A model generated the notes under the pieces. The model saw only the letters and a program-made list of their open reading frames with translations, had not been told where the DNA came from and did not search any database. A DNA stretch of 64,000 nt from a virus (lineage: Duplodnaviria; Caudoviricetes). A program made the translations under genes and the position numbers. Below, piece after piece: positions 905 to 19,321 of this stretch (its first letter is position 1; the number at the start of each line of letters is the position of its first letter). Location of the stretch: IMG/VR virus record IMGVR_UViG_3300020450_000008. One strand, 5' to 3'.

Positions 905-1924
905 ATGAGAAATTTACTACTAGCAATACTTTCAGTATTGTTCCTAGCTACAGGAGCATTTGCTGGAGGAGATAAATTAAAAGTCGGATTCATATATGTT
1001 GGACCAGTCGGCGATCACGGTTGGACTTACATGCATGATCAAGGACGTCTATCAGTTGAAGAAGCTTTTGGAGATAAAGTGGAAACAACATATATTGAAA
1101 GCGTTCCTGAAGGAGCAGATGCTGAAAGAGCCATAACTCAATTAGCTTTATCTGGCCATGATATTATATTTGCAACGTCATTTGGATATATGGAACAAAT
1201 GTTAAATGTTGCAAAGAAGTTTCCAAACGTAAAGTTTGAACACGCAACTGGATATAAGACAGCACCTAATATGTCTGTGTATTCTTCTAAGTTCTATGAA
1301 GGTAGATATATCCAAGGAGTTATAGCAGGTATGATGAGTAAGAAAGGAAAAGCAGGTTATATTGCTTCATTTCCAATTCCAGAAGTTATTCGTGGAATTA
1401 ACTCATTCTATCTTGGAGCAACATCTATCAATCCTGATTTTGATCTAGATATTGTATGGGTCAATACCTGGTACGATCCTGCAAAAGAAGGAGATGCTGC
1501 AAGTGTGTTAATATCTCAAGGAGCTGACATTATAACACAACATACTGATTCGACTGCACCGTTACAAATAGCACAATCAAAAGGTATATTAGGATTTGGT
1601 CAAGCTTCTGATATGATTAAGTTTGCTCCCGATACTCAAATGACTGCTATTATCGATGACTGGGGTCCTTACTATGTTGCTAGAGTAAAGGCTGTTCTCG
1701 ATGGAACCTGGGAGTCTGCAGACACCTGGGGCGGAATGGATACTGGTATGGTTAAAATGGCGCCATATACTAATCTTCCTGAAAATATAAAACATGCCGC
1801 AGCTAAAATTGCTATCGAAATTAGAGATGGTAAATTTGATCCATTTGGTGGAAAGTTTTCTGTAGGCGAACTTCTTGGAATGAATCAATATCTTGAAGGT
1901 ATTGATGCTCAAGTACCAAATTAA
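905..1924 (+). CDS. BMP/PnrA-family ABC transporter periplasmic substrate-binding protein (purine nucleoside type)
   Basis: Sec signal peptide ending GAFA; KVGFIYVGPVGDHGWTYMHDQGR, ATSFGY, WVNTWYDPAKE and QHTDS motifs typical of BMP proteins; GGAG RBS. Confidence 0.9.
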   Translation: MRNLLLAILSVLFLATGAFAGGDKLKVGFIYVGPVGDHGWTYMHDQGRLSVEEAFGDKVETTYIESVPEGADAERAITQLALSGHDIIFATSFGYMEQMLNVAKKFPNVKFEHATGYKTAPNMSVYSSKFYEGRYIQGVIAGMMSKKGKAGYIASFPIPEVIRGINSFYLGATSINPDFDLDIVWVNTWYDPAKEGDAASVLISQGADIITQHTDSTAPLQIAQSKGILGFGQASDMIKFAPDTQMTAIIDDWGPYYVARVKAVLDGTWESADTWGGMDTGMVKMAPYTNLPENIKHAAAKIAIEIRDGKFDPFGGKFSVGELLGMNQYLEGIDAQVPN

Positions 1925-11969: not shown

Positions 11970-12172
11970 CTGGATTTGAAATATTTACAATTATATGTTT
12001 TATCGCTACTATAGTGATTGTGCCTGTTTATATGTGGTTACTATACAATATTAAAAACTCTTGGACATCTAATTCACATGATACTCAAGGTGGTAGTATG
12101 ACAATACTTGAAGGAGATGATCAGCCAAAAGTAACTTGGATGGATCCCTTAATTAAAAAAATCAAGAAGTAA
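11966..12172 (+). CDS. Hypothetical single-TM protein
   Basis: N-terminal hydrophobic helix; ATGA overlap. Confidence 0.55.
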   Translation: MTGFEIFTIICFIATIVIVPVYMWLLYNIKNSWTSNSHDTQGGSMTILEGDDQPKVTWMDPLIKKIKK

Positions 12173-12900
12173 TGACAACCTTTATATCCGCTCCGTTCGG
12201 AAACTATCTTAAATTTAAGAATGCTGTAAGTGTGACTGGTACTTGGACATATAAACCGAGACCAGGACTATTCAAACAAGTTGTAAAGACATTAAGATAT
12301 ACTAGAAATGGTTGGCGTAATAAAATAGGTTTAAGAAATCGTGGAATAGAGTATGGCATACAAAAAACTAACTTTAATGAAGTTTTAAGTATTGCTGCGA
12401 TAAGTGAACACGATTGGATAAATTTAGAATCAATAGTTCCACAAAGCCAAAGTGTTGAGTTAAATATTAGTTGTCCTAATCTTGATACTCATCAAGATAC
12501 TACAATGTTCAATGGATTTGATTTATGGCCAACTAAACATAGGAAATGGTGTATTGTTAAAGTTCCACCAACCGCATCATTTGCACTACTAGATAGTATA
12601 GTGAGACAAGGATTTACACAGATTCATGCCAGTAATACATTACCGACTGAAAAAGGTGGTTTAAGTGGAGCCATATTGCTACCACATACTCGAAGAATAA
12701 TTAAACACCTGAAAACTGAATATGGCCATGTAGAAGTTATTGCTGGTGGTGGAATCAAAGAAGCATGGCATGCTGAATTTTATAAAGATTTAGGTGCAGA
12801 TCATTTTAGTATCGGCACCGCTTGTTTTAATCCCTTTAAAGTATGGAGAACAGTGAATGAGATTAATGGAGACCCTTCGTTCGGAGTACATCAAACCTAG
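12172..12900 (+). CDS. pyrD: Dihydroorotate dehydrogenase-like FMN TIM barrel (family 1, short)
   Basis: ELNISCPN catalytic-Cys loop, IVKVPP, ASNT, GGLSG, IAGGGI, GADHFSIGT. Confidence 0.75.
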   Translation: MTTFISAPFGNYLKFKNAVSVTGTWTYKPRPGLFKQVVKTLRYTRNGWRNKIGLRNRGIEYGIQKTNFNEVLSIAAISEHDWINLESIVPQSQSVELNISCPNLDTHQDTTMFNGFDLWPTKHRKWCIVKVPPTASFALLDSIVRQGFTQIHASNTLPTEKGGLSGAILLPHTRRIIKHLKTEYGHVEVIAGGGIKEAWHAEFYKDLGADHFSIGTACFNPFKVWRTVNEINGDPSFGVHQT

Positions 12901-15741: not shown

Positions 15742-15991
15742 TCAACCATACCACAATAAAGGATTTGGCGTAGCATTTCTATGGATAATCTTAGTTGTGT
15801 TTATATTACCAGTAGTCGCCATGATGACATTAGACGATACTTTTGAAAGGTTCTTACAGAAATATGGAGATCCCTTTACTACCGAGTGTTGGGAAAATTC
15901 TAAACATGAAAAGGTTTGTAAAGGTGAAGTCGAATGCAAGTTTGGCCGTAACTTTTGTATTGATGAAGTATACAGGTGGAGAGCTAAGTGA
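15734..15991 (+). CDS. Hypothetical membrane protein
   Basis: TM helix and three Cys. Confidence 0.6.
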   Translation: MSDQPYHNKGFGVAFLWIILVVFILPVVAMMTLDDTFERFLQKYGDPFTTECWENSKHEKVCKGEVECKFGRNFCIDEVYRWRAK

Positions 15992-16803
15992 GAATCATAG
16001 CTGGCCCATGCCAACATGAGTCATACGAACAATCATTAGAAATAGCCAAACATTGTAAGAAGTGGTGTGACCACTTTGGATTTGAATATTATTTTAAAGC
16101 TTCTTATGATAAGGCTAACAGAACATCAATGCATTCAGAAAGAGGCAGAGGATTGAAGAAAACTCTTTTTGATTTGTCTAAAATTAAAAAAGAAATTGGT
16201 GTCTCTATCTTGACTGATGTACACGATAGAGAACAACTTAGAACTATTAGAGCTTTCTTTGATCATGTTGTTGATGTTATACAAATACCCGCATTTCTTT
16301 CCAGACAAACAGATCTTATTGTTGATGCCTCTCTAAGTGGTAAAATAATAAATATTAAAAAGGGGCAGTTTATGGCTCCTTGGGATATTAAAGGGATCTT
16401 GAGTAAGACGAAAGGTGCAAAAGATGTTTGGATTACCGAGCGAGGGACTTCTTTCGGATATAATCGTCTTGTCGTCGACTTTGTCGGTATGGTATCTATT
16501 CTGCGCGATCTTGGGAACGCCTGTGTCTTCGACGCTACTCACTCAGTCCAGAGACCTGGAGGAGGTGGTGATAAGAGCGACGGCGATCGTGGGTACGTTC
16601 CTAGCCTTTTGCGGGCCGCAGCTGCTATTGGTGTTGAGTCGTTTTTCTTAGAGGTGCATCCAGATCCTGATAGTGCTCCAAGTGACGGGCCAAACATGGT
16701 TCCATTAGACGCTTTTTATGATATGCTTAATATGATAAACAGAACAAGTTGGAGGAACATTGCAGAAGAATACGGGAAAAGACATCCATTTCGGTCTCTT
16801 TGA
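15988..16803 (+). CDS. kdsA: 3-deoxy-D-manno-octulosonate 8-phosphate synthase
   Basis: IIAGPC, FKASYDKANRTS, QIPAFLSRQTDL, NIKKGQF, ERGTSFGY, FDATHSVQ, EVHPDPDSAPSDG; GTG start. Confidence 0.95.
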   Translation: MRIIAGPCQHESYEQSLEIAKHCKKWCDHFGFEYYFKASYDKANRTSMHSERGRGLKKTLFDLSKIKKEIGVSILTDVHDREQLRTIRAFFDHVVDVIQIPAFLSRQTDLIVDASLSGKIINIKKGQFMAPWDIKGILSKTKGAKDVWITERGTSFGYNRLVVDFVGMVSILRDLGNACVFDATHSVQRPGGGGDKSDGDRGYVPSLLRAAAAIGVESFFLEVHPDPDSAPSDGPNMVPLDAFYDMLNMINRTSWRNIAEEYGKRHPFRSL

Positions 16804-16954
16804 GAAAAAATGCAGGAAATGCGGTCATAAATCTCATTGTGATGCCGAATGTATGGAATGTTATAACGATATATGCACAGGGTGTAGTTGTGAAAAATGC
16901 GATCCTGATTGCATATTGGCTCTGGGGGGTGGAGTCGAACCACCACGTCATTAG
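16760..16954 (+). CDS. Cys-rich small protein (metallothionein-like spacing); 3' end antisense to the tRNA
   Basis: CRKCGHKSHCDAECMECYNDICTGCSCEKCDPDC; start uncertain. Confidence 0.45.
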   Translation: MQKNTGKDIHFGLFEKKCRKCGHKSHCDAECMECYNDICTGCSCEKCDPDCILALGGGVEPPRH

Positions 16955-17001
16955 ACAACGTATAAACAGTACGCCGCGTCTACCAATTCCGCCACCCCAG
17001 A
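16917..17001 (-). tRNA. trnN: Atypical tRNA, anticodon GUU (Asn), with long variable arm
   Basis: TCTGGGG TG GCGG AATTGGTAGA CGC G GCGTA CTGTTTA TACGT TGTCTAATGACGT GGTGG TTCGACT CCACC CCCCAGA G CCA: 7-bp acceptor stem, 5-bp anticodon and T stems, encoded CCA. Confidence 0.85.
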
Positions 17002-17006
17002 TTAAA

Positions 17007-17834
17007 TTATGCGGCTTTCGCTTGTCTCCACTCTTGAGCTTTTTCGACTGCTGCTATCATTCTTGTCATGCCGATTCCTCCGCCAACTCTTGGAAAGAAA
17101 TCCATAGCTAAGAAGTCTTTAAGCTCTTGTTCAACTCTATCTTTTCCAAATAACTTGTAAAGAAGTTCAGCGTACTTACCTTCACTGATTGTATGAAATG
17201 TATGAGACATTTGTTCTTTATCTGTACTTCTTTCGGCTGATCCAATTGTTTCCATACCGTTTAATATTACATCAATCTTTTTACTTGTCAGTTCATTGTC
17301 GTGTCTTGACATATTCCAAAATGGTGATGTAAATTCTGGAAAGTTTGTAATCATTCCCCAGCCAATCTCGTCTTCATGCTCATTTTCGATCTCTTCAACT
17401 TCAAACTGATCTTGCCACTCTTTGTATGTTCTAATATCAAGTTCTGGAAATCCAAGATATTCACATAGTTCAAGTTCCATTGCTTTGAGATCATCTACGT
17501 CTCCTGGAAACTCAAATTCAAACATTGGGAATATAGTCTCATGACGACCTTCTACTGGTCTTGGTTCTTGTCTGTAGGAAGTGGAGACACAAAAAAACCC
17601 GTTCTCTGACGGGTTAGTTAACAACTCATATTCGAGCCACATCTGGCCCGTTTGCGGTAACGGCCATATATTACCATTGTATTGATATGTAGCCACTGTT
17701 TCTGGATCTTCGCAAGCTGCCAGTATACTCAGTCTATTTTGAGTATGAACTTCATGAAAGCCTTTAGATAAAAAAAAGGACCTTAAAAGGTCCACTGTTT
17801 TTGTAAATTTTTGCGGTTTGATAAGCGATGTCAT
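17007..17834 (-). CDS. Class II (Asp/Asn/Lys-type) aminoacyl-tRNA synthetase catalytic-domain-only paralog (AsnRS2/archaeal asparagine synthetase-like)
   Basis: Motif 1 GFHEVHT, LPQTGQMWLE, motif 2 SYRQE..GRH..IFPMFEFE, DVILNGMETIGSAER and motif 3 GGGIGMTR. No N-terminal anticodon-binding OB fold. Start set at MTSLIK. Confidence 0.85.
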   Translation of the reverse strand: MTSLIKPQKFTKTVDLLRSFFLSKGFHEVHTQNRLSILAACEDPETVATYQYNGNIWPLPQTGQMWLEYELLTNPSENGFFCVSTSYRQEPRPVEGRHETIFPMFEFEFPGDVDDLKAMELELCEYLGFPELDIRTYKEWQDQFEVEEIENEHEDEIGWGMITNFPEFTSPFWNMSRHDNELTSKKIDVILNGMETIGSAERSTDKEQMSHTFHTISEGKYAELLYKLFGKDRVEQELKDFLAMDFFPRVGGGIGMTRMIAAVEKAQEWRQAKAA

Positions 17835-17896
17835 TTTTCTTTCTTTCTGTAAATGTTGCACAATTGTAGTATATATAAGATTTTTTTAAAAAAACG

Positions 17897-17925
17897 TTTA
17901 CAAATGAAAAAAAATATGATAGAAT
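17897..17925 (+). promoter_or_regulatory. Early promoter TTTACA-N17-TAGAAT with upstream A tract
   Basis: Same AAxCGTTTACA context as the three cassette promoters; divergent from the synthetase gene. Confidence 0.75.
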
Positions 17926-18271: not shown

Positions 18272-18540
18272 TGTTTACGATAGAATATGACCATGATGAG
18301 ACTGTCACGACTGTCTTGGATAATGATGGAAAGCATGAAGATCTTCAGTTGATTATAGGCGATAAATCCGTATATATAAGACAATATAATCCGGGAAAAA
18401 AGACTTATGATTTAATTGAAATATCACCTTTCATGTTTCAAGAACTTATGAAATCAATGGAATACCCAGAAGGTTCTTATTTAACTACCGGAAGATTTCT
18501 ACCAGACAGGACGACACCGAATGGAACGAAAATATATTGA
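18271..18540 (+). CDS. Conserved hypothetical protein
   Basis: FTIEYDHDET...VYIRQY...EGSY. Confidence 0.65.
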   Translation: MFTIEYDHDETVTTVLDNDGKHEDLQLIIGDKSVYIRQYNPGKKTYDLIEISPFMFQELMKSMEYPEGSYLTTGRFLPDRTTPNGTKIY

Positions 18541-19321
18541 CGTCTTAAACGACGGAAAATTAAATATGTGGATAGATATATCTACGTACTGCAATGCATC
18601 TTGTCCAGAATGCCATAGAACAGATATTGAAAATGGCGGCCTAGGAAAAGTCCAATGGCTTCCTCTTGTTCAATGGACTTTTGAAGAATTTAAAAAATCC
18701 TATCCGCCATCTTTTGTTAGTAAAACTAATAGATGGGAATTTTGTGGTACATGGGGAGATCCTGTAATGAATAAGGATTTATTGGATATATGCCAATACG
18801 TCTCTGATAATACTCCAGTTGATGGTGCTGTTGAAATCGATACAAATGGTAGTATAAGACCTTTAAGCTGGTGGGAAAAACTAGGAAAGATAGGCAAAAT
18901 AAAAGTTGATTTTGCTATTGAAGGTATTACTCAGGAAATGCATTCTTTATATAGAAGAAGAACCGATCTAGCAAAAATATTGGCTAATATGAAACGCTTT
19001 ACGGACGCTGGTGGTATTGCAACTGGATTCTGTGTTATACACAAACACAATCAAGATCACCTTCTTGAAATAGAAAATTTATGTAAAGCTTATGGCGCTG
19101 TATTTGTAGACTTTATAGAATCTAATAGATTTAATAAGTCTCCTTTATTTCATTTTTTTAACGAAGAAGATAAAATTGAAGTCCTAGAAAAACCTACTAA
19201 CTATCAATTTCCTGGAGAAGTTAATCATTATGGAAAAACAATACAACAAAAAAATAATACCACAGAGTGGCAGTTACTAGCCCGGCAGGTAGAAAATATC
19301 AAAGAAGAACCAGATATATGA
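18521..19321 (+). CDS. Radical SAM protein (core domain)
   Basis: CNASCPEC CxxxCxxC, GTWGDP, IDTNGS, FAIEG, HNQ. Confidence 0.85.
   Translation: MERKYIDVLNDGKLNMWIDISTYCNASCPECHRTDIENGGLGKVQWLPLVQWTFEEFKKSYPPSFVSKTNRWEFCGTWGDPVMNKDLLDICQYVSDNTPVDGAVEIDTNGSIRPLSWWEKLGKIGKIKVDFAIEGITQEMHSLYRRRTDLAKILANMKRFTDAGGIATGFCVIHKHNQDHLLEIENLCKAYGAVFVDFIESNRFNKSPLFHFFNEEDKIEVLEKPTNYQFPGEVNHYGKTIQQKNNTTEWQLLARQVENIKEEPDI

Follow-up and report, generated by a model that had tools for sequence, protein, structure and literature searches.

An ocean-phage tRNA(GUU) with a leucine-type core and a uridine at position 37, encoded beside a protein resembling the catalytic core of asparaginyl-tRNA synthetase

The 64-kb stretch of phage DNA analysed in this work (the window) carries on its minus strand a protein gene followed, 5 nt past the stop codon, by a tRNA gene. 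The protein gene (17007-17834; ATG at 17834, with an in-frame GTG upstream at 17861) encodes a 275-amino-acid protein resembling the class IIb catalytic core of AsnRS (the enzyme), as judged by Pfam tRNA-synt_2 (54.5 bits), a family profile and AlphaFold2. The tRNA gene (16917-17001, 85 nt including an encoded CCA) was the sole tRNA called in the window by ARAGORN, one of the two programs proposed for this check by a first-pass annotation, and was called as tRNA-Asn(gtt). In a local run the Rfam tRNA model (RF00005) scored it at 46.1 bits (gathering score 29, E 5.9e-9), and the 7-bp acceptor stem, the D arm, the 5-bp anticodon stem with its 7-nt loop and the UUCRA T loop were all found. The element was not detected when the whole window was run through Rfam with fast filters at gathering thresholds; because the local run detects it, this miss is a filter artefact. 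The covariance model of the tRNA family described below gave 97.9 bits.

Direct reading of the gene gives an acceptor stem UCUGGGG/CCCCAGA, and hence U1-A72, followed by G73 and the encoded CCA. After U8 and G9 comes the D arm, GCG-GAAUUGGUAGA-CGC. The anticodon stem GCGUA/UACGU carries the loop C32-U33-G34-U35-U36-U37-A38 (CUGUUUA), in which the anticodon occupies 16965-16967 and U37 position 16964, both on the minus strand; with a U there, neither a purine nor t6A is possible at this site. The variable region of 13 nt contains the hairpin GUC-UAAU-GAC (16947-16956, minus strand), then G and U48, and the T arm (GGUGG-UUCGACU-CCACC) is normal. This reading agrees with the first-pass description of a chimera, in which an Asn acceptor end and anticodon are set on a Leu-type class II core with U37. 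The minimum-energy fold of the single sequence is not a cloverleaf (z -1.9); covariation was preferred as evidence of structure.

The core of the molecule is that of tRNA-Leu. From U8 to C25 it equals a canonical phage tRNA-Leu(UAA) in 18 of 19 bases, and its closest BLAST matches in phage records are genes annotated as tRNA-Leu. With bacterial and phage tRNA-Leu, which are class II, it shares the Leu-type D arm, A15-U48, the long variable arm formed by a hairpin followed by G-U, and the T arm. It differs from them in having G73 instead of A73, another acceptor stem and an Asn anticodon, G73 and GUU being invariant in the family, and in a variable arm that some relatives lack and that reaches about 40 nt in others. 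With bacterial tRNA-Asn the window tRNA has in common GUU, U1-A72, G73, the CCA end and C32/A38. GUU and G73, which are unchanged across the family, form the identity set of bacterial AsnRS, and together with U1-A72 that of bacterial AsnRS and GatCAB. Canonical tRNA-Asn, however, has a 76-nt class I body with a short variable loop of 4-5 nt and A37, the t6A site, whereas the window tRNA has the Leu-type D arm, U37 and, in its variable region of 13 nt, a hairpin. A canonical phage tRNA-Asn was found in a related contig (L086:1501-1576), with the loop CUGUUAA and a 76-nt class I body. The window tRNA also departs from tRNA-Ser, which combines G1-C72, G2-C71 and a Ser anticodon with a long variable arm; the corresponding elements here are U1-A72, C2-G71 and GUU.

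Scanning IMG/VR with the enzyme protein brought up 163 relatives, and 80 loci from among them were used. Scanning with a tRNA pattern yielded 80 loci as well, 66 with true family tRNAs and 14 being chance matches that had no tRNA fold. A covariance model of the family was built on 23 tRNAs and run downstream of the enzyme in 84 sources. Altogether 48 distinct relatives were obtained from marine T4-like phages, including the Prochlorococcus phages P-SSM2, P-SSM5 and P-SSM7, in whose GenBank records a 'tRNA ligase' gene is followed at once by an 85-88-nt 'tRNA-Asn'. The family is restricted to phages living in the ocean.

In the 23-sequence alignment 99.3% of the cells are paired, and double-sided changes occur in 18 of the 24 pairs; none of 500 shuffles equalled the real value, and sliding the partner columns reduced pairing to 43-55%. 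Every helix is backed by covariation, that of the variable arm (helix 4) included. All 48 distinct sequences have GUU, U1-A72, G73, U8, G9, A14, A15, G18G19, U48 and the T loop unchanged. By contrast with this fixed set, the five pairs of the anticodon stem vary freely with compensatory changes, so that GCGUA/UACGU, listed by the first-pass annotation among the Asn features, has lost that standing. The variable region extends from 7 nt without a hairpin up to about 40 nt, and some family tRNAs (L063, L064 and L078) have no variable arm; an arm that ranges this widely is no fixed identity element. The window tRNA thus belongs to a strongly selected RNA family.

Position 37 is U in 42, C in 3, A in 2 and G in 1 of the 48 sequences, a pyrimidine in 45, and position 33 is U in 43, C in 3 and A in 2, U33 being replaced in 5. 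An identical CUGUUUA loop, carried by stems that differ and compensate, recurs in dozens of metagenomic phages as well as in P-SSM2, P-SSM5 and P-SSM7. The oddity of the U37 and the minimum-energy fold might raise the suspicion of a pseudo-tRNA in decay or of a misread base at 37, either of which would have undone the first-pass interpretation. Both were rejected, because the same loop is present, with compensatory changes in the stems, in isolates and in hundreds of metagenomic phages, and because contigs from RNA runs that cover this base list no variant at it. The RNA contigs of three studies agree with this, and we regard the probability of either artefact as negligible.

Few features of decoding tRNAs are as constant as purine 37 and U33. 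As a control, the other tRNAs found by ARAGORN in the fetched contigs were inspected, and all 93 of 93 have A or G at position 37 together with U33; the window tRNA has U33 and fails at position 37. Taking the invariant set and the pyrimidine 37 together with these 93 purine-37 controls, the constraint on the family is unlike that on the decoding tRNAs of the same phages. The family tRNA is the only tRNA found in contigs G009 (146 kb) and G012 (99 kb), and reportedly, according to its genome paper, also in P-SSM2, which argues against simple codon supplementation. No canonical tRNA-Asn was found in five tRNA-carrying contigs or in the P-SSM7 locus (L003), and one, with A37, was present among five enzyme-only contigs; one of five against none of five is too few to count.

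According to the first-pass annotation, the tRNA might insert a residue other than Asn at AAY codons, Ser or Leu being supplied by host SerRS or LeuRS acting on the class II body. Such mischarging would fit the Leu-type D arm, the pair A15-U48 and the long variable arm, and also the facts that G73 is the discriminator of tRNA-Ser too and that LeuRS and SerRS disregard the anticodon. However, bacterial LeuRS needs A73, which was never found in the family, and the acceptor start U1-A72, C2-G71, U3-A70 is unlike the tRNA-Ser pattern, U1-A72 being part of the invariant Asn-type set. Moreover, L063, L064 and L078 dispense with the variable arm, an invariant GUU would be purposeless if it did not serve Asn codons, and replacement of Asn throughout the proteome would also harm the phage. 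The proposal thus found no support, and we consider it very improbable.

The tRNA is tied to the enzyme gene throughout the family. With the covariance model it was found directly 3' of the enzyme in 69 of 84 enzyme loci. Conversely, the enzyme lies 6-146 nt upstream on the same strand in all 60 family tRNAs with readable upstream DNA; in the remaining six of the 66 the contig end was too near for the upstream gene to be judged. The spacer is 5-30 nt in most loci, and the genes flanking the enzyme-tRNA cassette vary among phages. No tRNA accompanies the enzyme in some 15% of the marine loci or in any of the non-marine relatives, six MAG contigs included, and in five large contigs with the enzyme and no adjacent tRNA no copy of the family tRNA was found elsewhere. 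A maximum-likelihood tree built from 72 enzymes has no tRNA in its non-marine outgroups and requires at least 6-7 gains or losses of it inside the marine clade. The tRNA was thus never seen without the enzyme, whereas the enzyme does without the tRNA.

A consensus scan located a candidate sigma-70-like promoter, TTTAAA-16-TACAAT, at 17863-17890 on the minus strand, and no promoter-like site between the enzyme gene and the tRNA; the two genes therefore probably share one promoter. Given this and the short spacer, their permanent linkage could be operon heritage. Contigs covering the tRNA at 90-95% identity were found in three metatranscriptome runs from two studies and in one further run whose RNA origin was only guessed, and three RNA-library contigs bridge the tRNA into the 3' end of the enzyme gene. 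The two differences seen in the tRNA of the RNA-run contigs, a U-to-C change in the variable loop and a change of G27-U43 to G-C, both occur in locus L004. These contigs are assemblies, and they show presence in RNA libraries, not RNA ends, strand, processing or charging.

The constant position of the tRNA right behind the enzyme gene, in the window 5 nt past the stop codon, together with the bridging RNA contigs and an enzyme that can manage without the tRNA, would also suit a cis-acting RNA, whose tRNA shape would process or stabilise the 3' end of the enzyme mRNA or act as a regulator bound by the AsnRS-derived protein. A structural signal, however, has no need of invariant GUU, G73, U1-A72 and an encoded CCA amid freely changing stems, and we judge this explanation improbable.

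The enzyme consists of a catalytic domain only. The Pfam tRNA-synt_2 match covers residues 18-280 of a 284-amino-acid reading, and the N-terminal OB-fold anticodon-binding domain is absent from the window enzyme. Searching the PDB with the family profile returned AsnRS (3e-14), archaeal-type AspRS (6e-13), archaeal AsnA (6e-7) and EpmA (4.5e-6). The AlphaFold2 model (pLDDT 96.4) fitted AsnRS and AspRS equally well as its best folds, both at about 1e-16 and roughly 20% identity. Since the fold search does not separate AsnRS from AspRS, only two motif positions speak for the amino-acid specificity assigned to the enzyme. It has intact motifs 2 and 3, as in a class IIb core, and the pocket residues are of the Asn type: QTGQMWLE of the enzyme aligns to QSSQLYLE of Brugia AsnRS, and the Lys and Asp by which human AspRS binds Asp are aligned to L and E. 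These two positions are sites that distinguish AsnRS from AspRS in class IIb synthetases, and at both the enzyme is AsnRS-like. The fusions with pyr genes and the pyr neighbours described below argue for a function other than the charging of tRNA-Asn, or for one in addition to it.

Most full-length members of the enzyme family have about 260-300 amino acids, and the family falls into no fewer than 8000 clusters when grouped at 90% identity, or 664 when grouped at 50%. In prokaryotes, searched with one genome per species, it was found only in six contigs of MAGs, and it is thus essentially confined to phages. The active-site motifs are essentially alike in tRNA-linked, tRNA-less and pyr-fused enzymes, which suggests that the enzyme performs the same chemistry everywhere, and probably a chemistry that does not need the tRNA.

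Class II cores without an anticodon-binding domain are also found in archaeal asparagine synthetase A (AS-AR, PDB 3P8T) and EpmA, the profile E values of which were given above; both are, like GluQRS/YadB and HisZ, truncated synthetase paralogues that act off the ribosome. AS-AR, a stand-alone core that produces free Asn with no tRNA involved, has the same architecture as the phage enzyme and a comparable fold (3rex, TM 0.71), its profile value of 6e-7 standing against 3e-14 for AsnRS. In contrast to AS-AR, GluQRS/YadB, HisZ and EpmA, the phage enzyme scores better with true AsnRS and is linked or fused to PyrB, PyrD, PyrE and PyrF; none of the four is known to have a dedicated tRNA gene of its own.

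The links to pyrimidine synthesis are of several kinds. In protein P0124, which is 58% identical to the window enzyme and occurs in seven contigs, the AsnRS-like core is fused with PyrD (661 amino acids; L249:6793-8778), and the gene adjoins a PyrE/F-like gene. In P0152 the core is fused with PyrF (588 amino acids; L253:544-2310), with a phosphoribosyltransferase and PyrD beside it, and in L213 the gene order is PyrD, enzyme, PyrE/F. The marine contig L039, an enzyme-only locus nested among tRNA-linked loci on the tree, has a short aspartate carbamoyltransferase gene (PyrB, 659-1465) between a tRNA-Thr (570-645) and the AsnRS-like enzyme (1528-2370); tRNA(GUU) is absent. A gene resembling dihydroorotate dehydrogenase (DHO_dh) directly precedes the enzyme and the tRNA, in that order, in at least eight other loci: L131, L035, L037, L038, L126, L128, L132 and L170. 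The window has a short gene of this kind (242 amino acids; 12172-12900, plus strand), which passes the Pfam DHO_dh cut-off of 27 with 47 bits and is separated from the cassette by about 4.1 kb, and its product is 56.5% identical to that of the L131 copy, which lies directly upstream of the cassette. Other copies of the enzyme adjoin RpiB or ribonucleotide reductase. A protein of 125-130 amino acids with a weak phosphoribosyltransferase motif (ILIVDDVYTTGRS) is encoded beside the cassette or within a few kb on either side of it in 14 loci (L040:2353-2730, L131:2621-3001, L009:1017-1409 and 11 more); it could be a PyrE- or PyrR-like partner.

No dihydroorotase gene was seen in these clusters of pyr genes and enzyme. 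A Chitinophagales MAG with PyrD-enzyme-PyrE/F has neither PyrB nor PyrC, which, coming from a single and perhaps incomplete MAG, is a hint only. The fusions with PyrD and PyrF and the missing dihydroorotase suggest an undescribed pyrimidine enzyme derived from a synthetase, and it is a plausible inference from the gene contexts that it provides an ATP-dependent route to dihydroorotate in place of PyrC and perhaps also of PyrB. Taking into account the pyr fusions, the pyr neighbours and the occurrence without tRNA, the enzyme may belong to the pyrimidine pathway and not be a tRNA charger.

The explanation that we favour, tentatively and at somewhat less than even probability, is that the tRNA decodes poorly and serves the enzyme as its private tRNA, either charged by it or feeding it. 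The analysis shows the structure of the tRNA, its conservation, its enzyme linkage and its presence in RNA libraries; that the enzyme binds and charges it and that it decodes with low efficiency is what we infer. The tRNA seems to be transcribed together with the enzyme gene, behind which it closes the transcript, and then to be freed by tRNA processing. Lacking an anticodon reader, the enzyme could recognise only the Asn-type acceptor end of the tRNA, which would dock in the AsnRS-like active site, and the docked tRNA would either be loaded with Asn or hand tRNA-bound Asn or Asp to the enzyme. The amino-acid types agree, an AsnRS-derived core being joined to a tRNA with an Asn anticodon and Asn acceptor features. 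The absence of A37, and so of t6A, and the relaxed U33 point to a poor or specialised decoder, which would not routinely supplement the pool of tRNA-Asn.

One point against this private pair is the anticodon, because an enzyme without an anticodon domain leaves the invariant GUU unexplained; unreadable by the enzyme, GUU must be there either to pair with codons or to be recognised by the AsnRS or AspRS of the host. The pyrimidine context, the independence of the enzyme from the tRNA and the short spacer with an apparently shared promoter likewise speak against a functional link. Charging by an unusual route, an idea of the first-pass annotation, stays alive through the AsnRS-derived enzyme that lacks an anticodon domain and whose gene, part of the same transcription unit, ends 5 nt before the tRNA, but in its simple form, as an orthogonal synthetase/tRNA pair, it is weakened by the ties of the enzyme to pyrimidine genes.

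A different and rather less likely explanation, to be taken seriously nonetheless, is that of an ordinary translational tRNA-Asn charged by the host, through AsnRS or through ND-AspRS and then GatCAB, with a loop and body that evade a nuclease or another defence and with an unrelated enzyme of the pyrimidine pathway as its neighbour. The invariant GUU, G73 and U1-A72 match the identity set of AsnRS and GatCAB. The neighbouring enzyme has its links to pyr genes and does without the tRNA, and with so short a spacer and apparently only one promoter the two genes are unlikely to become separated. The distribution of canonical tRNA-Asn, missing from the tRNA-carrying contigs and L003 and present in one enzyme-only contig, points the same way. 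Against host charging, pyrimidine 37 and a variable U33 are missing from the 93 other tRNAs and are expected to weaken the decoding of codons starting with A, the Leu-type core and the variable arm of 0-40 nt are left unexplained, and the position of an Asn-type tRNA beside an AsnRS-derived enzyme would be a coincidence. No Asn-specific nuclease is known, which tells against evasion. Changes in the anticodon loops of phage tRNAs have been proposed to serve the evasion of host nucleases (PMC10264068), and escape from anticodon nucleases or from t6A-dependent targeting, raised also by the first-pass annotation, is possible.

A further proposal, to which we attach a low probability, is that the tRNA is a dedicated, non-ribosomal carrier of an amino acid into a tRNA-dependent synthesis of pyrimidines (dihydroorotate). 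Host ND-AspRS would read GUU and G73, host GatCAB would read U1-A72, and Asn would be built on the tRNA, while U37 and the class II body would hold it off the ribosome. With ATP, the enzyme would turn the tRNA-bound Asn or Asp into dihydroorotate for the PyrD-like enzyme of the phage, bypassing PyrB and PyrC of the host. Such a carrier would cover the invariant positions, the non-decoder loop, the dependence of the tRNA on the enzyme and the links to pyr genes. A recent precedent for a phage enzyme that uses aminoacyl-tRNA off the ribosome is Mom of phage Mu (PMC13219725). In an alphaproteobacterial order, AsnRS was absent from 41 of 41 genomes; the order is connected to the family only through the binning of a MAG phage contig that itself does not have the tRNA, and we base no conclusion on this absence.

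Dedicated or anomalous tRNAs exist elsewhere: the non-proteinogenic tRNA-Gly of Staphylococcus serves cell-wall synthesis, the tRNA-ProA of Streptomyces has its own ProRS, and allo-tRNAs form a further group. The idea in common with the phage tRNA is that of an isoacceptor set apart from translation or paired with a dedicated synthetase gene, whereas the amino acid, the organism and the structural tricks differ. None of these tRNAs is known to combine a class II body with an Asn anticodon and pyrimidine 37.

The gene itself is already annotated as tRNA-Asn in the GenBank records of the three cyanophages, and the enzyme was listed under T4-GC 194 as 'tRNA ligase' in a gene table of 2010 (PMC3037559). 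Beyond that row, searches of the literature turned up no work on the pair, nor any description of its class II body, its pyrimidine 37, its linkage or its pyrimidine context. The family is a very abundant one of ocean phages, in which the purine-37 rule is broken in 94% and U33 is relaxed in a tenth of the sequences under strong selection. If the enzyme charges the tRNA, the two would form a natural, minimal, anticodon-blind synthetase/tRNA pair, of interest to genetic-code engineers. If it is a pyrimidine-pathway enzyme, a synthetase-derived replacement of dihydroorotase, and perhaps of aspartate carbamoyltransferase, would be widespread in marine viruses, and the tRNA may tie translation or tRNA-bound amino acids to the nucleotide supply during infection. 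Either outcome would be new to biology, and in viruses that are among the most numerous of the sea.

Some further observations concern the surroundings of the cassette. In the window it is an isolated minus-strand unit, flanked by plus-strand genes for a protein of the KdsA/DAHP-synthase family (15988-16803) and a radical SAM protein (18521-19321), with a divergent promoter-like site at 17897-17925. A candidate 64-codon reading frame for a cysteine-rich protein with many CxxC pairs is located at 16760-16954 on the plus strand, its last 38 nt being antisense to the 3' half of the tRNA. Permuted tmRNA-like genes were called by ARAGORN within about 1 kb of the enzyme in several contigs of marine phages (L017, L060 and L069 near 1043-1429, minus strand; L224; L070:2395-2712, plus strand), with the tags ANDNRAPAMALAA and ADENLALAA.
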